44,751 nt of DNA from a virus. The notes under the pieces were generated by a model. That model had not been told where the DNA came from. It ran no database searches and worked only from the letters and a program-made list of their open reading frames with translations. The translations under genes and the position numbers were made by a program. How positions within the stretch are numbered: the stretch's first letter is position 1; each line of letters starts with the position of its first letter. Positions 1,710 to 44,751 of the stretch are shown here, piece after piece. The stretch is taken from IMG/VR virus record IMGVR_UViG_3300045988_055685, positions 1-44,751 of that record, one strand, 5' to 3'.

Positions 1710-1784
1710 TGGAGCACCGCACGAGACTTGAACTCGCCCGCCCAGCTTGGAAGGCTGGTATGCTTCCGACTACATCAGCGGTGC
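1710..1784 (-). tRNA. tRNA-Gly (anticodon UCC), CCA encoded
   Basis: Hand-folded 75 nt: GCACCGC TG ATGT AGTCGGAA GCAT A CCAGC CTTCCAA GCTGG GCGG GCGAG TTCAAGT CTCGT GCGGTGC T CCA. All four stems pair, and the discriminator is U. Confidence 0.85.
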
Positions 1785-1908: not shown

Positions 1909-2373
1909 TCAGGCTTTTGTACTTTTATCCATTACCATTATAGCACATATACTATTAGTATTTATTAGCATATTTTCAACTTCTCGTAATGCTTTAGGAT
2001 GAAGCACCTTAGTCACATGTGCAAATGAATAATGCATACATTCCGCCACTTCATTCCATGTTTTACCGTTTATATAATACTCAGTTAGCAAAGTCGCACA
2101 GGCATTATCTTCTATCTTGCCAACCACCTGCAAAATCTCTGCCCTGATTTCATTCAGCTTATCAAGCTGCTCGTCTACAACCGCACTTGCAACAGCATAT
2201 CCCGCTATCTTATCATCAGGCGCGCCCGAGCTTCCCGAGGGCGGCGTTTCGTGCGGCCGAACGGTAATTGACACTGCCCTGTCGTAAATGCGCGCCTTGG
2301 CCTCCTGCAAGGCTTCTATGCGCTTCTCCATATTGCGCGCCCGCATCAGCCATTCTTTCGCAGTCACTCCCAT
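1909..2373 (-). CDS. Putative late-gene transcriptional activator (sigma-70 region-4-like HTH; ArpU/RinA/DUF1492-type position)
   Basis: The C-terminal segment LLTEYYINGKTWNEVAECMHYSFAHVTKVLHPKALREVENML looks like sigma region 4. It is the last gene before the packaging region. The true start may be GTG at 2367. Confidence 0.5.
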   Translation of the reverse strand: MGVTAKEWLMRARNMEKRIEALQEAKARIYDRAVSITVRPHETPPSGSSGAPDDKIAGYAVASAVVDEQLDKLNEIRAEILQVVGKIEDNACATLLTEYYINGKTWNEVAECMHYSFAHVTKVLHPKALREVENMLINTNSICAIMVMDKSTKA

Positions 2374-7591: not shown

Positions 7592-8399
7592 CCGCGCCCC
7601 TCCTTGCCTCAAGCTGCTGCTTCACCCGATCGCGCCACTGCGTTTCCCATTCTGACAACTGCTGGCCGGATATCCCCTGCGCTGCGGGCTTCTTGCCGTT
7701 CTCAATCCTGTCCCAGACGATCCCGCGCCAGTTGTTTGCCATGCTCAGGCGTATCACATCGCACACCGCCCGTTCTCCGTGCGCCCCGATCTGGTTCTCT
7801 ATCTCCGCAAGCAGGCTTTTCAGGCCGACCGGCTTATACGCCTCGCGGCGCTCCTGCTTGTACGCCAGCCATTCACGGACAGTTTCGGCAACAGGCTCCG
7901 AAAAGCGTTCGGAGAGTTCGGGCGCGCCCTCTTTCTTAGCTTTCTTGCTTTCTTCTCTTTCTTTTCTTTCTTTCATTGTTGCCCTTTGAGTGCCCTCGGT
8001 CTGCCCGCTGTCTGTCCTCGGTCTGTCCTCGGTCTGCCCTTGGTCTGCCATTTGTTTGCCCTCGGTCTGCCCTTGGGTTGCCCCGTCCGATTGATACCGT
8101 TCGTATTCGTTGACGGTGATAACGGTCATGTGCCGGTTGCTCCAAACAGCGATCTCTCCGGTTTTTTTTAGCCGGTCCAGGCTCGTCCGCACCTCTTTCA
8201 CACTAAGGCCGGTCTGCTCTGCCAAACCGGCAAGAGAGGCTGCGATCTGGCCGCGCTCTATCGTCTTTTCACCTATATCGCGCGGCTCATAGTTCGCATT
8301 CAGCAAAAGGTTAATCCAAAGCAGGAGGGTTTTCGGCTCTTTGTACCACCGCCAATTCGCAAGCGAACGGTGCAGCTTTATGTAACCGTTTTCCAGCAC
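7584..8399 (-). CDS. Phage replisome organizer / replication initiator (N-terminal wHTH, DnaD-like C-terminal region)
   Basis: MLENGYIKLHRSLANWRWYKEPKTLLLWINLLLNANY... is the remembered replisome-organizer N-terminal signature. The central GQTE repeat linker is encoded by DNA iterons. Confidence 0.7.
   Translation of the reverse strand: MLENGYIKLHRSLANWRWYKEPKTLLLWINLLLNANYEPRDIGEKTIERGQIAASLAGLAEQTGLSVKEVRTSLDRLKKTGEIAVWSNRHMTVITVNEYERYQSDGATQGQTEGKQMADQGQTEDRPRTDSGQTEGTQRATMKERKEREESKKAKKEGAPELSERFSEPVAETVREWLAYKQERREAYKPVGLKSLLAEIENQIGAHGERAVCDVIRLSMANNWRGIVWDRIENGKKPAAQGISGQQLSEWETQWRDRVKQQLEARRGAGG
7990..8085. repeat. Iteron array (CCTYGGTCTG, ~11-bp phasing, 5-6 copies) inside the replisome organizer gene; candidate ori
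   Basis: Copies at 7994-8003, 8016-8025, 8027-8036, 8038-8047, 8060-8069, and degenerate 8071-8080. They are preceded by a ~50-bp pyrimidine tract (7925-7975). Confidence 0.55.
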
Positions 8400-16490: not shown

Positions 16491-16691
16491 ATGACCGAAC
16501 CACGCATGATCGTAATATGCTCCAAATGCGGAACGCCCTGCCATACTCTCGGATACGATAAAGCTACCTGCTCATTCAAATACGACTACTCCAAGCCTTG
16601 CGGAAAATGCGGCGCTGCCGATTGGGTAGCGCATGAGGTCGGGCGAAACTGGAAAACCGGACTTTGGGAGAAAACAGAGAGGCACATTTGA
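16491..16691 (+). CDS. Small zinc-ribbon protein
   Basis: CSKCGTPC...CGKCG. Confidence 0.55.
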   Translation: MTEPRMIVICSKCGTPCHTLGYDKATCSFKYDYSKPCGKCGAADWVAHEVGRNWKTGLWEKTERHI

Positions 16692-16716
16692 CAAATAAAC
16701 ATAGAGCGGTTATAAT
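16688..16716 (+). promoter_or_regulatory. Consensus promoter of module-1 sRNA
   Basis: TTGACA (16688-93), 17 nt, TATAAT (16711-16). Confidence 0.65.
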
Positions 16717-16722
16717 AGACAT

Positions 16723-16818
16723 AGAAAAAGGGCGCAGCCGGTTGACGGTTATTCCCAAAGATTTAAGTCAGAAAATGACCGCTATCATTTGGACGTGAGG
16801 GCGGTCATTTTCTTTTGC
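16723..16818 (+). ncRNA. Candidate ~90-nt sRNA (module 1)
   Basis: 5' arm, then hairpin GAAAATGACCGC / GCGGTCATTTTC (16771-82 / 16801-12) with loop TATCATTTGGACGTGAGG, then TTTTCTTTT. Confidence 0.5.
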
Positions 16819-16891
16819 ATATCTGAACAATCAGACCAGCAAATGCCACAAGCAACATGAGAAGCTGAAAAAGCTCCGAGTATGTAACCAT
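16805..16891 (-). CDS. 28-aa hydrophobic peptide, Hol-Tox-like (candidate type I toxin)
   Basis: RBS GGGGAGGTGG. MVTYSELFQLLMLLVAFAGLIVQICKRK. The stop lies inside the hairpin stem. Confidence 0.5.
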   Translation of the reverse strand: MVTYSELFQLLMLLVAFAGLIVQICKRK

Positions 16892-17068
16892 AGCACCACC
16901 TCCCCTTTATGGGTTCGGTGGGAATAACCGCCAACCGCTGGCACGGCTGCGCCTTATCCACAGGATAACACAACAGCTTACAAAATACAAGAAAAATCCC
17001 GCCCCTGCGCTACCAACACAGAGACGGGATATGAGGGTAGAAACATTTGACCGATGCTCTACCCTCTT

Positions 17069-21388: not shown

Positions 21389-21522
21389 TCCAATCACGTC
21401 CTCTCTGTGGAAAACGGCGCTCGGCGACGTGAACCGAGCGTTTTTCCGTTCTCCATGATTTAATTGTAGGACAAACCGTGATTTGATGTGTGCGCTTGTG
21501 TTGCGTTTGTGTGCGTTTGTGT

Positions 21523-21555
21523 GCAAAAGCAAACCCCGTGGGTTCTCCCACGGGG
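21523..21555 (-). terminator. Intrinsic terminator after the small regulator gene
   Basis: Minus strand reads CCCCGTGGG agaa CCCACGGGG TTTGCTTTTGC. Confidence 0.65.
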
Positions 21556-21801
21556 CTAAGCCATATGCAGTATTCGGGCAACGTCGATCAGGCGTGCAAA
21601 AATATCTCTGGAGCGCCGCGAAACAACGGACCTGTCGTACCCGATTTCAGCGGCAATGTCCGCCTGCGGGTAGTGGTCTATCAGCGTCCTGCGGGCTATG
21701 ACCGTATTCTCGAAACCCAGCGCGGCCTCGTCTATCACGGTCAACCGCTGGCTCTTCGTCAGCCGTTCCAGCTCTTCCGGCACCTTTGCACGTCCTGCCA
21801 T
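21556..21801 (-). CDS. Small sigma-70 region-4-like HTH protein
   Basis: LTKSQRLTVIDEAALGFENTVIARRTLIDHYPQADIAAEIGYDRSVVSRRSRDIFARL. Confidence 0.5.
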   Translation of the reverse strand: MAGRAKVPEELERLTKSQRLTVIDEAALGFENTVIARRTLIDHYPQADIAAEIGYDRSVVSRRSRDIFARLIDVARILHMA

Positions 21802-21809
21802 GTTGCACC

Positions 21810-22565
21810 TCAGTCAATCATTCTTCGCATCATAATAAGCATGCGCGCCATGTCCTCGGTCAGGTCAAGGCCCTTATCCGCTTCGCTGCCTCCCTTTCCA
21901 GTCAGCACCTTTTCGTCAATCAATACCTGCATGTCCGCGCGAATATACTCCGGCATATCCGATACCGCCCTGTACCGCTTCGGCTGCATTTTGTTTGCTT
22001 CCTCTTTGGCAATTGCTCTGGTTTGTGCTTCGGTCATATCTGGTTCCTCCTGTTCATATTTTGGATTGCCGTAGCCGTATATGCTGGGATACCCCAGCGG
22101 ATAGGACTTGCGTGCCACACCGCCGCCGTTCGCTACCACGCCGGACGCGCCCGAGGTATTCCCCTCGATGGTGTAGACATAGCCGTTTTCCACCTTCTCC
22201 ACGATACCTACATGCCCGCCTCCGTTCGGATACTGGCGGGTGGAGAAATATACGACATCGCCCGCTCTCGGCGTGTAAGCCGCCCGCAGGTGGAAGCGCC
22301 CGCGCTCCGCGAACCAGTCCTTGCCGTTGTAGCAGCTTGCCGTGCGCGGGATGATTCCGGCATTACCGGACTGTGCCGCGCACCAGCTTATAAACATATG
22401 GCACCAGTAGGCTTCCGGTCCGTTCAGGCCGTACCACTTGCCGTATTTCGTCCAGTTATTCGAGCCTGCGTTTGCGGTCTTGCTGTCAAGGCCCGCATTG
22501 CTCGCTTTCTCCAGATAGCCGACCTCTGCGGCGGCAACCCTCAAAATACCGCTTGCTTTTCCCAA
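21810..22565 (-). CDS. Endolysin, CHAP-domain peptidoglycan hydrolase with C-terminal putative wall-binding region
   Basis: YWCHMFISWC...GDVVYF...GGHVGIVEKVENGYVYTIEGNTS is the CHAP Cys/His signature. The start is uncertain (TTG 22565 behind GAGGTG, or GTG 22574). Confidence 0.8.
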   Translation of the reverse strand: MGKASGILRVAAAEVGYLEKASNAGLDSKTANAGSNNWTKYGKWYGLNGPEAYWCHMFISWCAAQSGNAGIIPRTASCYNGKDWFAERGRFHLRAAYTPRAGDVVYFSTRQYPNGGGHVGIVEKVENGYVYTIEGNTSGASGVVANGGGVARKSYPLGYPSIYGYGNPKYEQEEPDMTEAQTRAIAKEEANKMQPKRYRAVSDMPEYIRADMQVLIDEKVLTGKGGSEADKGLDLTEDMARMLIMMRRMID

Positions 22566-22582
22566 ATGATTCACCTCAATTT

Positions 22583-22618
22583 CAAAACAAAAAGCCCCAC
22601 CTTGACACAGGCGGGGCT
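22583..22618 (-). terminator. Intrinsic terminator between module 2 and the endolysin RBS
   Basis: Minus strand reads AAGCCCCGCCTGTGTCAAGGTGGGGCTTTTTGTTTT. Confidence 0.6.
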
Positions 22619-22629
22619 TGTGGTATAAT
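22602..22629 (+). promoter_or_regulatory. Consensus promoter of module-2 sRNA
   Basis: TTGACA (22602-07), 16 nt, TGgTATAAT (TATAAT at 22624-29). Confidence 0.65.
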
Positions 22630-22635
22630 ATGAAC

Positions 22636-22720
22636 ATAAAGAGGCGCTGTCGGCAGACGGCTGACCCAATTACACAGTTAAAGTAACCGCTTCATTTGGT
22701 CGTGAGGGCGGTTACTTTGC
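22636..22720 (+). ncRNA. Candidate sRNA (module 2); may read through to the plus-strand terminator at 22884-22906
   Basis: 5' arm GAGGCGCTGTCGGCAGACGGCTGACCC, then the conserved-loop hairpin. The T-run after the hairpin is weak. Confidence 0.45.
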
Positions 22721-22786
22721 ATATGTAACAAAAATGTGTAACAAGATTGCTGCACATATTGAAATCCTTGCGAATCTCAAGCCCAT
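22712..22786 (-). CDS. 24-aa hydrophobic peptide (candidate type I toxin)
   Basis: RBS GGGGTGGTG. MGLRFARISICAAILLHIFVTYAK. The stop lies inside the hairpin stem. Confidence 0.4.
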   Translation of the reverse strand: MGLRFARISICAAILLHIFVTYAK

Positions 22787-22850
22787 ATGCACCACCCCTT
22801 TCTCAAGGAGTGATCAACCGCCCGCCGCTGGGAACGACAGCGCCCGACAT

Positions 22851-22880
22851 ATTATACCATCGCACGCCGCGCTATGTCAA
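22851..22880 (-). promoter_or_regulatory. Promoter of module-2 peptide mRNA
   Basis: TTGACA (22880-75), 18 nt, TGgTATAAT (TATAAT at 22856-51). Confidence 0.55.
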
Positions 22881-22883
22881 TTT

Positions 22884-22906
22884 GCCGCCTTTGGGCGGCT
22901 TTTTTA
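22884..22906 (+). terminator. Plus-strand-oriented terminator overlapping the holin stop codon
   Basis: GCCGCC tttg GGCGGC TTTTTTATTT. Confidence 0.55.
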
Positions 22907-23167
22907 TTTCTGTCCGAGCTGTTTGACAATCTGGTTTACACCCGTCGCCGCAAGGCCGGACACAATGCCGATTGCAATTGCCGTCAGCGGGTCGTTTGCG
23001 CCATACTCCGGCATAATCCGCATCGCTGCAATTCCCAGTACCGCGCCAGAAATGCCGCAGATGATCGGCAGCCACTTGTTGTCAAGCGCCGTAGCCTTTA
23101 CGATCTGTGCGATCAGATAGCAAATTACCGTGATTGCCGGAATCGCCGTAAATCCCAAACTTTCCAT
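22904..23167 (-). CDS. Holin (3 predicted TM segments)
   Basis: MESLGFTAIPAITVICYLIAQIV...WLPIICGISGAVLGIAA...AIAIGIVSGLAATGV. RBS is AAAGGAGCG. It lies between XhlA and the endolysin. Confidence 0.7.
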   Translation of the reverse strand: MESLGFTAIPAITVICYLIAQIVKATALDNKWLPIICGISGAVLGIAAMRIMPEYGANDPLTAIAIGIVSGLAATGVNQIVKQLGQK

Positions 23168-23180
23168 AAGTACGCTCCTT

Positions 23181-23498
23181 TCAAAGTCCAATTCTTGCAA
23201 GCAGGAATGCGATTACTGCCGCCAGAACTGCCCATACCGACTTGTCCACAATGCTTTCCCACCGTCTTGCGGGCTTGCTTGTAACCTCCGCGACGGTAGC
23301 GGTCAGGCTGTCCAGTTTCTCAATAATGGTGTTATACCGTTCTTCCTGTACCGCGCTGTCCTGCTCCAATGCGCGGATACGGTCAAAGAACTCCTTGTGC
23401 GTGTCGCTCGCCCTGTCCATCCGCTTTTCCAGCGCTTCCACGCGGGCAAGCGTGATGCACTCGTGCGGATTGTTTGTGCATTGGTTTTCCATAGGCAA
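23181..23498 (-). CDS. XhlA-family lysis-associated membrane protein
   Basis: Coiled coil (LEKRMDRASDTHKEFFDRIRALEQ...) plus a C-terminal TM (VWAVLAAVIAFLLARIGL). Confidence 0.65.
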   Translation of the reverse strand: MPMENQCTNNPHECITLARVEALEKRMDRASDTHKEFFDRIRALEQDSAVQEERYNTIIEKLDSLTATVAEVTSKPARRWESIVDKSVWAVLAAVIAFLLARIGL

Positions 23499-23525
23499 GT
23501 GGGGCGCTATACCCCGTCCCCCCTC

Positions 23526-24596
23526 TCATTGAATGCTCTTGTGAATACGCGCCAGTGTGCAGGCCAGCTCTTCGCGCGTAACAAAATCCCGCGGCCGGAA
23601 CTTCCCGTCTGCATCCCCTTCCATAATGCCGTACTCGTTACAATACTTAACATTTTCCTTTGCCCATTCGGAAATCTGATTTTCGTCCTTATACATCGTC
23701 CCACCCCCCTCTTTCGTCTGGTACTTCCAGACGTTGATCTCTGACGGCTCCGGCAGGATAACCATACCGTGTCCGGTTTTGCTGTCGAAGCCCTCCGCCC
23801 CAATATCCACACAATGGTCCCTGAAAAAGCGCATCATTGCCTCGTGGGTCAGCGGCTTCCCTGTTTTGTCGATAAAAAAGTCATTGACCAGGCACGCCAT
23901 ACCGCAAAGCCATGGAGCCGCGAAAGACGTTCCGGTCTGTTTGCCATATGTAGTCACGCCGGTTTCTTTTGTGAATTTCACAACCTGACTGTCCGGCGCG
24001 GAAAAATCGAGATATTCCGTCGTAGAGGAAAAGTCCTCCGGAATGGCTTTGTTATTCTGGATGTAATACGCTCCAACGGTCGTCACGGCATCGCACCGCG
24101 CCAGTTCCACATAATCCGTGGAATATTCATTACCCGCCGCGACAAACATGTTAAATGTCCCAAGCCCATCGATCACCGTCTGGTATTTCTGGGCAAGGTA
24201 TTTGTCGCAGATCATGTCAAACGAGCAGAATACAGAGGTAATGCCGTATTCTTCGATATATGGCAGGCAATCATCCTCCAGTCCGCAGTAGCAGTCTTTC
24301 CCTGTCCTCGCCCTGCTGATTTTGGAAAGCTGGACTAACCGTGATCTGGGCGCAACCTGAAAGAATGTTGCCGCTGTCTTGCTGCCATGTCCTCCCGAGA
24401 AATTCCCCCAGCCGTACCCATCCCCAAACGGGATAAGGACCAGATCATCCGGATTATAGTTTTTGATGCTCCAGTTCTCTCCGGTAGCCGCCGTGACGCG
24501 CTCCCCAAAGTATCCCGCGTTATGGAACCTGTCCACACCCGTAAACTTGCGGATGTAGTTGTTTTCAGTGTGCAGCTTTGTTGTTTCAGTAGCCAC
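23526..24596 (-). CDS. S8 (subtilisin-like) serine peptidase with C-terminal SLH domain
   Basis: GGHGSKTA (His motif), GTSFAAPWLCG (Ser motif), and the SLH-like tail WAKENVKYCNEYGIMEGDADGKFRPRDFVTREELACTLARI. GTG start sits behind GGGGAGGTATAAC. Confidence 0.7.
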   Translation of the reverse strand: MATETTKLHTENNYIRKFTGVDRFHNAGYFGERVTAATGENWSIKNYNPDDLVLIPFGDGYGWGNFSGGHGSKTAATFFQVAPRSRLVQLSKISRARTGKDCYCGLEDDCLPYIEEYGITSVFCSFDMICDKYLAQKYQTVIDGLGTFNMFVAAGNEYSTDYVELARCDAVTTVGAYYIQNNKAIPEDFSSTTEYLDFSAPDSQVVKFTKETGVTTYGKQTGTSFAAPWLCGMACLVNDFFIDKTGKPLTHEAMMRFFRDHCVDIGAEGFDSKTGHGMVILPEPSEINVWKYQTKEGGGTMYKDENQISEWAKENVKYCNEYGIMEGDADGKFRPRDFVTREELACTLARIHKSIQ

Positions 24597-24597
24597 G

Positions 24598-24747
24598 TTA
24601 TACCTCCCCTTTTCCTGTCCCGTACTGCTTACCCGTAATCTGTTCGTACTCTTCATCAGAGAGCTTCCCCGCCGTGTAAAGCTGGTCTATCCGGCCAATG
24701 TCCCACAGCTTGGGGTAATAGTGCCGCGCCATTTCAAATACTGTCAT
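24598..24747 (-). CDS. XkdX family protein (49 aa)
   Basis: Self-translated MTVFEMARHYYPKLWDIGRIDQLYTAGKLSDEEYEQITGKQYGTGKGEV. It sits in the typical position after the tail fibers. Confidence 0.65.
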   Translation of the reverse strand: MTVFEMARHYYPKLWDIGRIDQLYTAGKLSDEEYEQITGKQYGTGKGEV

Positions 24748-34984: not shown

Positions 34985-35069
34985 TCAATCACCCCTTTCC
35001 TTTAAAAATGGGTATAAGAAAACCACCCTACGATGTGTAAGGTGGTCTATGTGTTGAGTTGTTTCTGCC

Positions 35070-35097
35070 TTGACATTGGCAGCACGCATGATATAAT
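35070..35097 (+). promoter_or_regulatory. Consensus promoter of module-3 sRNA
   Basis: TTGACA (35070-75), 16 nt, TATAAT (35092-97). Confidence 0.65.
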
Positions 35098-35103
35098 ATA
35101 GAT

Positions 35104-35192
35104 ACAAAGGGCGCAGTCGGTAGACGGTTAGCCCCATGAAGCATTAGAAGTAGCCGCTTCATTTGGACGTGAGGGCGGCTACTTCTTTTTAT
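35104..35192 (+). ncRNA. Candidate ~90-nt sRNA (module 3)
   Basis: Arm, then the conserved-loop hairpin, then TTTTTATT. A second plus-strand terminator CCCCC ttat GGGGG TTTTTTT lies at 35309-29. Confidence 0.5.
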
Positions 35193-35250
35193 TGTCTAAA
35201 ATACGCTCGATAAGTACGAGTACAATGACAAGTATTACGAGATATTCCAT
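35179..35250 (-). CDS. 23-aa hydrophobic peptide with KKK tail (candidate type I toxin)
   Basis: RBS GGGGGCGG. MEYLVILVIVLVLIERILDNKKK. The stop lies inside the hairpin stem. Confidence 0.45.
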   Translation of the reverse strand: MEYLVILVIVLVLIERILDNKKK

Positions 35251-35329
35251 ACAACCGCCCCCTTTCAGGGGCAAGACTTAACCGCCTACCGTTGCACGAC
35301 TGCGCCCGCCCCCTTATGGGGGTTTTTTT

Positions 35330-35359
35330 ATTATATCATAGCGCGTTGTCCAGTGTCAA
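35330..35359 (-). promoter_or_regulatory. Promoter of module-3 peptide mRNA
   Basis: TTGACA (35359-54), 18 nt, TATAAT (35335-30). Confidence 0.55.
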
Positions 35360-42932: not shown

Positions 42933-44167
42933 GCGGTCGCCCCCATTATCCTGCATATACGTTCCAGTGCGTATCGCGTAGCATCTATCAAATGGTTGTC
43001 TTTGTCCGGATACCCGCTGATGATCTCGCCATCCTTATTTCGCTCATATTCGTAATTGACAAATTCATCGTAGGCATGTGGTGTGCGGCGGCGGTCAATG
43101 ACTATCTTTCGGCGCTGCAACCACTTCATGCCATAATCTACGCTGCCAGGGCCTTTGACTGCTTCTTTTGCCGGAAGCCCCATCGCCCGATAATCCGCTG
43201 AAGACTTCGGCTCTGCGTTGTCGCATGTAATATAAGCGTCTCTATATCCTTTTTGCAGTATCAGCTTTCCGCTTGCATCGTTTGTCAGCTTGTTCTGATA
43301 TATTTCGTCAATAAAATAAATCGTTTCTCTCGCTCTATCATAATGAAGCCGGATAAATGCAAATGGATCGGGAAACCATCCCCAGTCAACGCCTTGGTAG
43401 ATGCGGTCAAAAGATGCGATTTCTCTATCTGTGATTTCACGCAATTCCAAATTCTCAAATACATTCCCGCCGGTACCGACTGCTTCCCCCAGATATTCGT
43501 GCCGGTATGCCCGCTCATCTGTGGCTTTCAGGTGTTCAGCTTCCGTGATAAACTGCTCTCCCAGCCATTCGGACGGTGCTTCAAGGTATGTGCTTTTGTG
43601 ACACAACCTGTCTTTACGTTCTTCCAAGCTGTCTTTATTCGCCCAATTATCACGGCTGATAGGAGGGTTATAACTCTCAAAATTCCAAAACTTAGACCCT
43701 CCGCGCATAGTAGATTGCAGGATAGTTCGTATCTCTGCCCGACCGGCAAACTGGTCTTTCTCTTCAAAGTGTGTCACCGCGATATACCCAAACGGCACCT
43801 TGATAGACTTTATTTTCATCGGGTCGTCTGCACCGCGAAACATAATTTTCTGCCCTGTCGGTCGGTATATCAGTTCCATCGGTTGTACCTTTGCATCCCA
43901 ATAGGCCGCCATACCCAACTCACCTATCGCCCATAAGTACTGCGCGTATACGCTATCGCGGATGGTATTGGCCACTTTGCGCAGCACAACAGCATGCGTT
44001 CCTGGATTGGCAATAAGTATCAGCGGGACAAGCAGCGATACGCAGGAAGATTTTAACGAGCCCCGCCCGCCGGATAAGTCGTAATGCGTGTGTCCATGTT
44101 GAAACACGTCGCGCGCCAGAAAGTGAAACGCGGGACCTATCACAGATGATAGTTTAGTTTCAGACAT
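42929..44167 (-). CDS. terL: Terminase large subunit (PBSX/Terminase_3-like)
   Basis: Walker A-like GGRGSLKSS near the N-terminus, plus acidic nuclease-domain motifs. It sits in the canonical position. Confidence 0.85.
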   Translation of the reverse strand: MSETKLSSVIGPAFHFLARDVFQHGHTHYDLSGGRGSLKSSCVSLLVPLILIANPGTHAVVLRKVANTIRDSVYAQYLWAIGELGMAAYWDAKVQPMELIYRPTGQKIMFRGADDPMKIKSIKVPFGYIAVTHFEEKDQFAGRAEIRTILQSTMRGGSKFWNFESYNPPISRDNWANKDSLEERKDRLCHKSTYLEAPSEWLGEQFITEAEHLKATDERAYRHEYLGEAVGTGGNVFENLELREITDREIASFDRIYQGVDWGWFPDPFAFIRLHYDRARETIYFIDEIYQNKLTNDASGKLILQKGYRDAYITCDNAEPKSSADYRAMGLPAKEAVKGPGSVDYGMKWLQRRKIVIDRRRTPHAYDEFVNYEYERNKDGEIISGYPDKDNHLIDATRYALERICRIMGATA

Positions 44168-44549
44168 CGATTATCACCTTTACTCCATTGTCGTTTCCGC
44201 TTCCCGCTTCCTGTGTCGTCGTCCACTTATCGATCAGCGTGCCAAGGGCGGTTGTAATCTGTGCCGGTGTCGCCTCGGCCAGCTTGTCCTCGCTATTCAA
44301 TACATCCAGCCCTTTGTCAATAATCTCGCACACAACGCCGCGCTTACTTTCCATGTATGCTATGATATCAGCGGTATTCTCTTCCTTTTTTCGCTGCAAT
44401 TTTTGTCTAATATCTGTATCATTCGTGACAATGTTCTTTACTGTCTGCCTTGATACGCCGTGGATTTTCGAGACGGCATTATAGCTGCCAAGTTCAACAT
44501 AATCCGCAACTATTTTCTTCCTCTGTTTATCCGTCAGCCGCGCAGCCAT
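44160..44549 (-). CDS. terS: Terminase small subunit (HTH)
   Basis: MAARLTDKQRKKIVADYVELGSYNAVSKIHGVSRQTVKNIV. RBS is GGAGGTGGCGTT. Confidence 0.75.
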   Translation of the reverse strand: MAARLTDKQRKKIVADYVELGSYNAVSKIHGVSRQTVKNIVTNDTDIRQKLQRKKEENTADIIAYMESKRGVVCEIIDKGLDVLNSEDKLAEATPAQITTALGTLIDKWTTTQEAGSGNDNGVKVIIDV

Positions 44550-44607
44550 AACGCCACCTCCAATCTGCGCAAAACAAAACCGCCACCCGTCAGGATAGCG
44601 GCTTTTC

Positions 44608-44751
44608 TTATCCAAGGCTTGCAATTATGTCGCGCTCCCTATCGGATAGCATCCACCTATGCGCCGCAGCGCGTTCAGCCGCAGCGCGTTCGGCAGCCGC
44701 ATGTTCAGCCGCAGCGCGTTCGGCAGCCGCATGTTCAGCCGCAGCGCGTTC
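44608..44751 (-). CDS. C-terminal end of the methyltransferase gene that starts at 798 (wraps around the contig junction)
   Basis: The frame gives ...AAAERAAAEHAAAERAAAHRWMLSDRERDIIASLG, with stop TAA at 44610-44608. The codon phase matches the 1-798 segment when 87 nt are treated as overlap (44,664 is divisible by 3). Confidence 0.65.
   Translation of the reverse strand, partial: ERAAAEHAAAERAAAEHAAAERAAAERAAAHRWMLSDRERDIIASLG
44665..44751. repeat. 87-nt terminal direct repeat identical to 1-87
   Basis: Base-by-base comparison of both ends. Confidence 0.95.

Follow-up and report, generated by a model that had tools for sequence, protein, structure and literature searches.

In the gut phage analyzed here, the holin gene is separated from the endolysin gene by a cassette of about 310 bp (module 2), which probably represents an autonomous type I toxin-antitoxin (TA) ‘moron’ and not a dedicated lysis gate. 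We prefer the former reading because other copies of the family are found in a tail operon and, in chromosomes, next to RecA-like ORFs. The features listed in the earlier note were confirmed; the note did not name the kind of module, whose anatomy corresponds to a type I TA locus. Three copies, module 2 among them, lie in the window (the whole analyzed stretch of 44,751 nt), and the module family comprises more than 40 loci from several genera, in Oscillospirales phages and chromosomes. The family is unannotated, with no significant match for the module among Rfam models at gathering or permissive thresholds, and most likely constitutes a new type I TA family.

Both lysis genes are located on the minus strand. 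The holin gene (22904-23200; Pfam Phage_holin_5_2, E-value 8.6e-20) ends with a stop codon at 22904-22906. Gene callers choose an internal ATG at 23167, resulting in a protein of 87 aa; this form was matched in an exact look-up, the 98-aa form was not. The endolysin gene (21810-22565) encodes a CHAP domain (Pfam CHAP, E-value 1.9e-15). As read from the sequence, it likely starts at TTG 22565 (alternatively at GTG 22574) and is preceded by the RBS GAGGTG (22577-22572). Module 2 lies between the holin stop and this RBS, exactly where the earlier note had placed it. A blastn search of the INPHARED phages with region 21500-24000 gave zero matches, hence no annotated relative could be assigned.

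The expectation that holin and endolysin would be contiguous where the module is absent was borne out in other phages with holin homologues of 38-75% identity. In these module-free comparators, which are all distant relatives (holin identity ≤75%), the next gene starts -2 to +5 nt past the holin stop. By this comparison, module 2 has been inserted into a holin-endolysin pair whose genes are otherwise closely linked. Among related phages, all 13 loci examined contain the module. Loci with an identical holin have a gap of 332-344 nt to the endolysin gene and carry the module in it (10/10 among the matches listed), while gene callers left the holin-endolysin gap empty in each of the 10 annotated contigs examined. 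All close relatives retain the module, even after a swap to an SPP1-type holin. Phage morons (Hendrix and colleagues) are extra promoter-terminator units between operon genes that are absent from relatives. Module 2 likewise has its own promoter and terminator, is inserted within an operon and is missing from distant relatives. Classical morons, however, are protein genes expressed from the prophage, whereas module 2 consists of a convergent RNA pair with terminators on both strands.

Module 2 contains two perfect sigma-A-type promoters facing each other. The putative antitoxin sRNA is preceded by TTGACA-16-TGgTATAAT on the plus strand (22602-22629; TG extension) and the toxin mRNA by TTGACA-18-TGgTATAAT on the minus strand (22880-22851). 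Both had been proposed in the earlier note, and both match the consensus at 12/12 positions. Perfect TTGACA-N16-18-TATAAT sites occur five times in the window against an expectation of 0.01, and all five fall inside the three modules. That module 2 has two equally perfect promoters counts against a TA assignment, since for many type I systems the stronger promoter is that of the antitoxin.

The promoters are flanked by outer terminators. On the minus strand, a terminator-like hairpin (22619-22582, -21.8 kcal/mol) has a stem at 22619-22592 of 11 bp, seven of them GC, followed by the U tract UUUUUGUUUU; at the sequence level, this is the GC-rich stem-loop and U tract of an intrinsic terminator. 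Its loop holds the -35 box of the opposite-strand sRNA promoter. The U tract of this strong terminator extends to 22582, leaving about 5 nt to the endolysin RBS (~7 nt in the earlier note). The stem is kept in a related locus (L099) via a double substitution. We predict that this element forms the 3′ end of the toxin mRNA and also acts as a barrier to late transcripts bound for the endolysin gene. On the plus strand, the terminator GCCGCC-TTTG-GGCGGC with its T run (22884-22909, -13.3 kcal/mol) consists of a stem-loop at 22884-22899 plus T6 and overlaps the holin stop codon, in agreement with the earlier note. It is predicted to serve as a backstop for sRNA read-through, shielding the holin gene from antisense transcription.

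The predicted sRNA is about 85 nt long (22636-22722, plus strand; covariance-model match at 22632-22725, 88.4 bits). It begins with an unpaired leader of ~6 nt, followed by a hairpin formed by box X (22643-22666), a linker rich in A and the terminator hairpin (22679-22719), and folds with -31 kcal/mol (z -3.0). The 3′ end in module 2 is uncertain because the U tract is weak (UUUGCAU). The terminator hairpin is the central hairpin common to both convergent transcripts, previously placed at 22681-22717. Its loop of 13-16 nt reads CAUUUGGUCGUGA on the sRNA strand, and the toxin stop codon sits inside its stem. Evidence for this hairpin comes from folding and from covariation, with double changes in 6/16 stem pairs among 31 homologues. 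RNAalifold recovered the terminator hairpin alone from the sRNA alignment, since box X was misaligned. The sRNA covariance model has exactly three matches in the window (88-98 bits, E-values 1e-18 to 1e-20). As judged from sequence features, a consensus promoter and a structured sRNA converge on the ORF in the manner of an antisense antitoxin, and the two transcripts would overlap by at least the stop codon and the central hairpin, or by ~85 nt with an mRNA 3′ end at 22592.

The minus strand encodes the hydrophobic 24-aa peptide MGLRFARISICAAILLHIFVTYAK (22712-22786, ATG at 22786, stop at 22712-22714), an ORF already described in the earlier note and considered here as a putative type I toxin (‘type B’). 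With a length below 60 aa, a hydrophobic composition and its own Shine-Dalgarno (SD) sequence, it has the properties of a small membrane-type peptide as encoded by type I systems. Homologues in loci L002, L014 and L024 are of equal length and show conservative changes. This peptide class has no protein family match, Pfam Hol_Tox (PF16935, ‘putative holin-like toxin’) included. The type A peptides, the class of copy 1, match Hol_Tox in 3/11 cases with a best E-value of 2.4e-4, the sole bit score seen (15.9) being under the Pfam cut-off of 23.3. The module 2 peptide has a single C-terminal Lys, which counts against the TA reading, as do the missing family match of its class and the lack of an Rfam match.

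The toxin mRNA is predicted to be highly structured. From its predicted +1 it starts with a 5′ box X (22813-22845, minus strand; fold and comparison), which repeats the sRNA box in the same sense but contains a 9-nt insertion. The adjacent hairpin CACUCCUU-GAGA-AAGGGGUG (22793-22812) sequesters the SD of the peptide, which is paired with an average probability of ~0.8 across 27 modules. The predicted partner of the mRNA box is the 3′ UTR of the same mRNA, antisense of the sRNA box (22643-22668). The long toxin mRNA folds with -115.7 kcal/mol (z -8.4) and 5′-3′ closure, which is predicted in 25/27 modules. By prediction and comparison, SD sequestration and 5′-3′ closure would together limit translation. 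Box X follows the -10 box after ~13 nt in the sRNA genes; most toxin genes have a spacing of 5-10 nt or contain an extra 5′ hairpin.

The substitution pattern of the two boxes points in the same direction. In a 20-nt core compared over 19 modules (a hand-curated alignment of non-independent modules, with pairs counted directly in Python), the sRNA and mRNA boxes differ at 37 positions, 33 of which are A>G or C>T in the direction from sRNA to mRNA. Such changes keep G.U pairs in the 5′-3′ helix of the mRNA (376/380 cells paired), whereas they become A.C mismatches in the alternative pairing (344/380 cells paired). At the lysis slot, 13 phage loci yielded five allele combinations, each with 22/22 pairs. 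These substitution patterns point to a toxin mRNA that closes on itself through pairing of its 5′ box with the antisense of the sRNA box, and on this comparative evidence the RNA pairings are under selection.

We propose the following mechanism. The minus-strand promoter would drive an mRNA of ~260 nt (22845 to ~22584) for the 24-aa membrane peptide, and this mRNA would remain closed and translationally silent, with box X paired to its own 3′ UTR and the SD held in an 8-bp hairpin. The plus-strand promoter would yield the ~85-nt sRNA, fully complementary to the mRNA 3′ UTR. The sRNA has box X at its beginning as well and so may compete for the 3′ UTR with the 5′ end of the mRNA. The perfect sRNA:mRNA duplex would then be cut by RNase III and the peptide kept off, by analogy with txpA/RatA and bsrG/SR4. 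Transcription from both promoters, toxicity of the peptide and the RNase III step are what we infer here. Masking the sRNA-bound mRNA region during folding left the predicted accessibility of SD and AUG unchanged, and the idea that the sRNA acts through SD re-sequestration was dropped for that reason; the proposed antitoxin step accordingly follows from analogy.

The two other copies in the window have the same organization. Copy 1 (16688-16990) has a plus-strand promoter at 16688-16716, an sRNA at 16720-16818 (98.1 bits) and the peptide MVTYSELFQLLMLLVAFAGLIVQICKRK (16805-16891, minus strand); its minus-strand promoter is weaker and an integrase gene adjoins. Copy 3 (35022-35359) is located between a Gp15-like tail gene and the tape-measure gene, with a plus-strand promoter at 35070-35097, an sRNA at 35099-35192 (97.9 bits), the peptide MEYLVILVIVLVLIERILDNKKK (35179-35250, minus strand), a plus-strand terminator at 35308-35323 and a minus-strand promoter at 35359-35330. 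A minus-strand hairpin (35022-35048, -17 kcal/mol) with a U-rich tail precedes the next RBS, although the terminator scan made no call there. A crude script detected a hairpin and T tail left of the sRNA promoter in 11/27 modules (copy 1 has none), so the outer terminator is frequent but not universal. A MITE-like mobile element was considered and rejected, as the outer terminators vary among copies and no target duplication was seen.

Across the family, about 35 distinct modules have the exact loop motif, and the fetched loci contain 52 covariance-model matches. The common architecture consists of an ~85-nt sRNA, a convergent ORF of ~22-33 codons with a sequestered SD, and a 5′ box on both RNAs. 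At least three unrelated peptide classes are encoded on this one RNA scaffold; the peptides are hydrophobic and end with Lys/Arg in most cases. The stop codon occupies a fixed position in the terminator stem, beginning 20 nt past the start of the motif in all 33 exact-motif modules with a recognizable ORF. Tandem arrays also occur (four copies in locus L018). In the phage locus L014, the module is flanked by a tape-measure-like ORF and by a YqbQ-like tail gene, while chromosomal members adjoin ORFs that we take, from their translations, to be RecA-like, likely acetate kinase and likely MiaB/RimO-like. Gene callers do not report peptides of this small size. The family is widespread in Oscillospirales, major human-gut bacteria, and in their phages. 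Two window copies interrupt late operons that are essential, behind strong terminators, which leaves two options: late transcription is resistant to terminators, or leaky termination sets gene dosage.

Convergent, overlapping type I TA systems with hydrophobic, Lys-rich peptides are described for prophages of B. subtilis and C. difficile (PMC6562991, PMC6563280, PMC7699646). The B. subtilis systems bsrG/SR4 (SPbeta), txpA/RatA (skin) and bsrE/SR5 (P6) resemble the module in their convergent genes with RNAs overlapping at the 3′ ends, prophage location, hydrophobic toxins (29-59 aa), SD sequestered in the toxin mRNA and different toxin classes on one RNA scaffold (PMC6562991). Recognition via the terminator loop followed by RNase III cleavage is listed for these systems (PMC6562991) and would apply to the module by analogy; for fst/RNAII, loop-loop contact is cited in the same source as the start of recognition. 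Sequence homology to these B. subtilis systems is not detectable: the Rfam model for BsrG (RF01412) reaches 14.6 and 14.7 bits, its gathering score being 55. The peptides of the module are shorter (~22-33 aa), its sRNA measures ~85 nt versus 163-222 nt and is contained entirely in the toxin 3′ UTR, the two RNAs have a common starting box, and the hosts are Oscillospirales.

The par system (fst/RNA II) of E. faecalis pAD1 has convergent transcripts with a central hairpin in common and repeats near both 5′ ends, and the module shares these three features. In par, direct DNA repeats give complementary 5′ regions and RNA II covers the fst translation start. Module 2 has neither direct repeats nor complementary 5′ ends over the toxin start: in the module family, both RNAs carry a same-sense box because the repeats are inverted in the DNA, and the predicted partner of the box is the toxin 3′ UTR. 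The hok mRNA is held inert by long-range 5′-3′ pairing (fbi element), and the same principle, predicted here, connects the module to hok/sok and aapA1/IsoA1. Sok and IsoA1, however, bind the 5′ region, whereas the antisense lies opposite the 3′ helix partner here; the module also has no leader ORF, Gram-positive hosts and no homology to these systems. The hokW-sokW copy of prophage Sp5 is likewise prophage-borne and affects phage release (PMC8621323). The TA systems of C. difficile phiCD630-1/-2 (CD0977.1-RCd11 among others) are convergent overlapping genes in Clostridia prophages, with toxins that are hydrophobic in the N-terminal part and rich in Lys at the C-terminus; a phage has several copies, the antitoxins cross-react, and the systems are proposed to stabilize the mobile element (PMC6563280, PMC7699646). 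Those toxins are 30-56 aa long and unrelated in sequence, and neither a holin-endolysin or tail-operon placement nor a shared 5′ box is described in the accessible text.

It is possible, though we hold it only tentatively, that the modules form a mechanistically distinct type I class in which the antitoxin sRNA mimics the 5′ end of the toxin mRNA and also attenuates late transcripts. The G/U-rich 5′ box would wobble-pair with any 3′ UTR allele opposite the sRNA gene, and the sRNA would open the mRNA loop by strand displacement, exposing the mRNA to RNases. As the phage cassettes are in sense orientation within late operons, sRNA and terminator would cut or attenuate polycistronic late transcripts. 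If true, an RNA switch driven by host promoters would set the supply of endolysin and tape-measure protein, and so lysis timing.

A module recruited as a gate or timer for lysis is an unlikely explanation. In one version, the terminator and convergent promoter would set the endolysin:holin ratio; in another, the peptide translated from late read-through transcripts would depolarize the membrane and trigger the holin, comparable to hokW-sokW, which facilitates release of phage Sp5 (PMC8621323). About 5 nt separate the end of the terminator from the endolysin RBS, and the ~20 nt between its stem and the RBS leave no room for a promoter, so that endolysin mRNA should arise from read-through (a hidden endolysin promoter was rejected for the same reason). 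Any late transcript of the endolysin gene would have to cross the convergent promoter and the strong terminator. In the four phage-operon insertions examined (copies 2 and 3, L014, L029), toxin ORF and late operon always run in the same direction, type B modules adjoin two unrelated endolysins (CHAP here, Amidase_3 in L029), the module stays with the endolysin where the holin is swapped (L039), and the identical-holin loci listed all carry it. Against this, family members reside in tail operons and at chromosomal sites unrelated to lysis, and even type B copies are found beside the likely acetate-kinase ORF (L024) and upstream of the YqbQ-like tail gene (L014). In addition, the peptide SD stays sequestered in every predicted state, and the promoters are of host-type consensus with nothing linking them to the late program. 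The read-through proposed in the earlier note is upheld, but its suggestion that the module gates endolysin expression is not; we read the terminator before the endolysin gene as a tolerated side effect of a TA moron and not as the purpose of the module.

Still less probable is an element in which the structured RNA is the conserved unit and the ORF is incidental. Box X might be a put-like cis-acting antitermination RNA carrying module transcripts past the outer terminators into the genes downstream (considered and rejected), or the sRNA a trans-acting regulator or decoy. The scaffold (box X, hairpin loop) is indeed better conserved than the peptides, box X immediately follows both promoters, and both transcripts have strong terminators downstream. 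However, ORF and SD are retained with the fixed stop position in 33/33 exact-motif ORF modules despite unrelated peptide classes, and the peptides are hydrophobic with near-constant length within each class. The A>G/C>T bias suits RNA-RNA pairing (X:X′) and not a motif bound by protein or RNA polymerase, constitutive read-through from consensus promoters into tail and endolysin genes makes little sense, and the chromosomal copies have unrelated neighbors.

A decaying remnant or neutral spacer with chance promoter- and terminator-like strings is barely conceivable: nothing but the absent annotation speaks for it, and it is already contradicted by the comparative data, given the five perfect promoters, the covariance-model scores of 88-98 bits, the homologous loci in several genera and the module in 13/13 related phage loci with structure-preserving changes. 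The 13 loci, the double substitution in L099 and the maintained RNA pairings also refute an ancestral non-functional spacer. The allele series of the holin-endolysin slot combines an invariant 5′ box with varying sRNA alleles, all differences being accommodated by G.U pairs, and offers a natural data set on the evolution of antisense RNA specificity.

Module 2 lies between two minus-strand genes, a holin gene of the Phage_holin_5_2 family (22904-23200) and a CHAP endolysin gene (21810-22565), whose RBS was read from the sequence as GAGGTG (22577-22572, minus strand). The promoter scan returned two convergent sites, each with 12/12 matches and a TG extension: TTGACA-16-TATAAT on the plus strand (22602-22629) for the putative antitoxin sRNA and TTGACA-18-TATAAT on the minus strand (22880-22851) for the predicted toxin, whose 24-codon ORF is in the ORF list (minus strand; ATG at 22786, stop at 22712-22714). 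Each strand also has a terminator, with an 11-bp stem (22619-22592) and a UUUUUGUUUU tail on the minus strand (-21.8 kcal/mol folded alone) and a weaker structure over the holin stop on the plus strand (22884-22899; -13.3 kcal/mol folded alone). The features that the earlier note had listed for 22583-22906 are all present. The window contains five perfect TTGACA-N16-18-TATAAT sites against 0.01 expected, all five inside the three modules, which excludes chance. Upstream of the holin are a weak XhlA-like gene and, directly preceding it, an S8 subtilase (S8-peptidase) gene with an SLH domain (23526-24656, minus strand), an unusual neighbour for a lysis cassette.

Across the family, the sRNA gene starts with a sigma-A-type promoter, with ~13 nt between the -10 box and box X, the 5' element common to both RNAs, in which GGCGC-like nucleotides and a small hairpin are combined with a conserved GACGG. 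An A-rich linker, a 10-12 bp hairpin with a loop of 13-16 nt and a T run follow, giving a predicted sRNA of ~85 nt. On the opposite strand, the second, convergent promoter precedes a second box X in the same sense with a 5-9 nt insertion, a hairpin burying a GGAGG-type Shine-Dalgarno sequence, and an ORF of ~22-33 codons. In 33/33 modules with the exact motif and a recognisable ORF, this ORF ends within the 3' arm of the sRNA terminator, with its stop codon 20 nt past the motif start. At least three classes of peptide, unrelated to one another, can be told apart: A (MVTYSELFQ...KRK), B (MGIKLFRVLICAILLLHILTINAK; that of module 2) and C (MEYLVILV...KKK). All of the peptides are hydrophobic, and most have Lys/Arg at the C-terminal end.

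Repeat finding located three copies in the window (~16688-16990, 22592-22900 and 35022-35359), in each of which the plus strand carries the conserved RNA, and a covariance model of the sRNA part matched exactly these three sites (88-98 bits). Their sRNA hairpin loops (16785-16804, 22692-22711 and 35159-35178) are identical except for one base (TTGGACG vs TTGGTCG) and their X boxes differ at a few positions; judged from these sequences, cross-talk among the three modules seems possible. Searching with the 20-nt loop core of the hairpin gave 12 viral and 26 genomic loci, one of the latter (L021) being a chance match. The hosts are Agathobaculum, Butyricicoccus, Anaerotruncus, Anaeromassilibacillus and Oscillospiraceae MAGs. 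In the loci that were fetched, the covariance model found 52 module copies, loop variants and tandem arrays included. Some bacterial contigs contain tandem arrays of two to four modules (four copies in L018, 2889-4353; also L004, L009, L016 and L020), an arrangement also found in several type I toxin-antitoxin families. Between module 1 and the start of the integrase gene (17097), there is a 16-bp hairpin with a T tail (16996-17030, minus strand), possibly connected with the attachment site.

In Firmicutes, type I toxin-antitoxin loci combine a small hydrophobic peptide, a sequestered Shine-Dalgarno sequence and a convergent antisense RNA over the 3' end; they are often found on prophages and in several copies, and can bear different toxins on a single RNA scaffold (PMC6562991, PMC6563280, PMC7699646). 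The anatomy of the module matches them. For the sRNA:mRNA duplex, cleavage by RNase III would be expected by analogy. No Rfam family matched the module; the BsrG toxin-mRNA model gave 14.6 and 14.7 bits at 22706-22823 and 35173-35286 (both minus strand) with a gathering score of 55, at equal relative positions and equal model coordinates in modules 2 and 3, and these matches, far below threshold, may reflect no more than a common general shape. Pfam Hol_Tox matched 3/11 class A peptides weakly (best E 2.4e-4, below the family cut-off), and class B peptides had no protein-family match. As neither Hol_Tox (for class B), Rfam BsrG nor the par/fst repeat logic applied, the module was filed as a new family of a known kind, outside any named family. 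Module 2, with a putative toxin and predicted transcripts, is probably a moron resembling a type I toxin-antitoxin system and would represent a family not described before. The kind of system is known; what is unusual is its site inside a holin-endolysin pair, the presence of three copies in a single phage genome and the common 5' box.

The sRNA terminator stem covaries, with double changes at 6/16 pairs. The module 2 sRNA folds at -31 kcal/mol (z -3.0); the minus-strand transcript, taken from its predicted +1 (22845) as far as the outer terminator, folds at -115.7 kcal/mol (z -8.4). In the predicted module 2 toxin mRNA, the Shine-Dalgarno sequence is within an 8-bp hairpin, and pairing with the 3' UTR, in the segment antisense to the box X of the sRNA, involves the 10 nt at the 5' end and the 14 nt of box X that come next. 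This 5'-3' closure is predicted for 25/27 distinct modules. The complementarity is partly built in by the inverted repeat, and therefore the differences between the two boxes were examined over a hand-curated 20-nt core in 19 modules. From sRNA to mRNA, 33 of the 37 differences are A>G or C>T, one is of the reverse type and three are transversions; one common position (GACGG vs GGCGG) supplies much of the A>G count, and the module-specific differences run in the same direction. In the mRNA 5'-3' helix, the A>G and C>T changes replace Watson-Crick pairs by G.U (376/380 cells paired), whereas the alternative pairing of the sRNA box with the antisense of the mRNA box would contain A.C mismatches (344/380). 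An independent check on 13 lysis-slot loci with an identical holin gave five 5' box/sRNA allele combinations, each with 22/22 pairs and all allele differences absorbed as G.U. Such a pattern is expected if the toxin-mRNA helix is under selection but kept weaker than the perfect sRNA:mRNA duplex. With predicted start sites, the toxin mRNA would be base-paired from +1 onward or have an additional hairpin at its 5' end, and the sRNA would begin with an unpaired A-rich leader of ~6 nt, a contrast that fits the usual logic of a stable toxin mRNA and a labile antitoxin.

The module is directly upstream of the endolysin gene in all endolysin relatives at 78-98% identity. One of them, L039 (648-1398), has an SPP1-type holin and an extra gene (164 aa, no family match) in place of the Phage_holin_5_2 holin, while module and endolysin are kept. 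In the assembly collection, 579 blocks contain the 87-aa holin, and in 10/10 contigs listed among these the holin-endolysin gap measures 332-344 nt and holds the module with no gene called. An empty site was not found among the closely related phages examined. The earlier note had proposed to look for contiguous holin and endolysin genes where the module is absent, and distant relatives show this: most homologous holins at 38-75% identity are separated by -2 to +5 nt from the following gene (endolysin-like or other), the gene upstream of the endolysin overlaps or adjoins it in more distant endolysin relatives, and the covariance model found no module in either set. By sequence comparison, module 2 is an insert that is fixed in this phage lineage. 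Among phages with identical holins (L090-L099, L039-L043), the slot holds a mosaic module: two peptide alleles occur together with four or more central hairpin/sRNA alleles, some of them differing in loop sequence, a pattern suggestive of recombination or of diversifying selection acting on sRNA specificity.

For the lysis cassette, the earlier claim was that endolysin expression must read through the insert or be gated by it. Read-through holds: ~5 nt separate the end of the minus-strand U tract from the endolysin RBS, leaving no room for a promoter, and the source could be late transcripts or the toxin promoter. The plus-strand terminator would halt sRNA read-through before antisense entry into the holin gene; this is relevant here, since class B modules have a weak U tract behind the central hairpin. 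A lysis-accessory role seems unlikely, even though toxin ORF and operon run in one direction in 4/4 phage-operon insertions, two unrelated endolysins (CHAP here, Amidase_3 in L029) have class B modules beside them and hokW-sokW helps the release of phage Sp5 (PMC8621323). Dedicated gating is unsupported given the other sites: copy 3 has the same layout in the tail operon, between a Gp15-like gene and that for the tape measure, whose expression is required, with a -17 kcal/mol hairpin and U-rich tail ahead of the tape-measure RBS; in L014, a class B module separates a tape-measure-like ORF from a YqbQ-like gene; and other, chromosomal copies adjoin RecA-like, likely acetate-kinase and likely MiaB/RimO-like ORFs (named by reading translations, not by family scans). 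Most simply, late transcription in this phage would tolerate or override terminators of this kind. Upstream of terS is a phrog_36-type regulator gene, for which a role in antitermination would be speculative.

The window ends (1-87 and 44665-44751) are identical and built of 15-nt-period repeats; the window is a circularly assembled genome of ~44.66 kb. A DUF3800-VIII RNA (RF03075, 57.7 bits) and a tRNA (1307-1372 and 1713-1784, minus strand) are located between the phrog_36 transcriptional-regulator gene (1909-2373, minus strand) and, wrapping round the circle, the gene in the small-terminase position (44160-44624), and a 33-nt direct repeat (1278-1310 and 1435-1467) lies on both sides of the DUF3800-VIII RNA. 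Finally, at least eight tandem copies of an 11-nt unit (TGCCCTCGGTC-like) at 7980-8083 may represent iterons or an origin, since the period is not a multiple of three.
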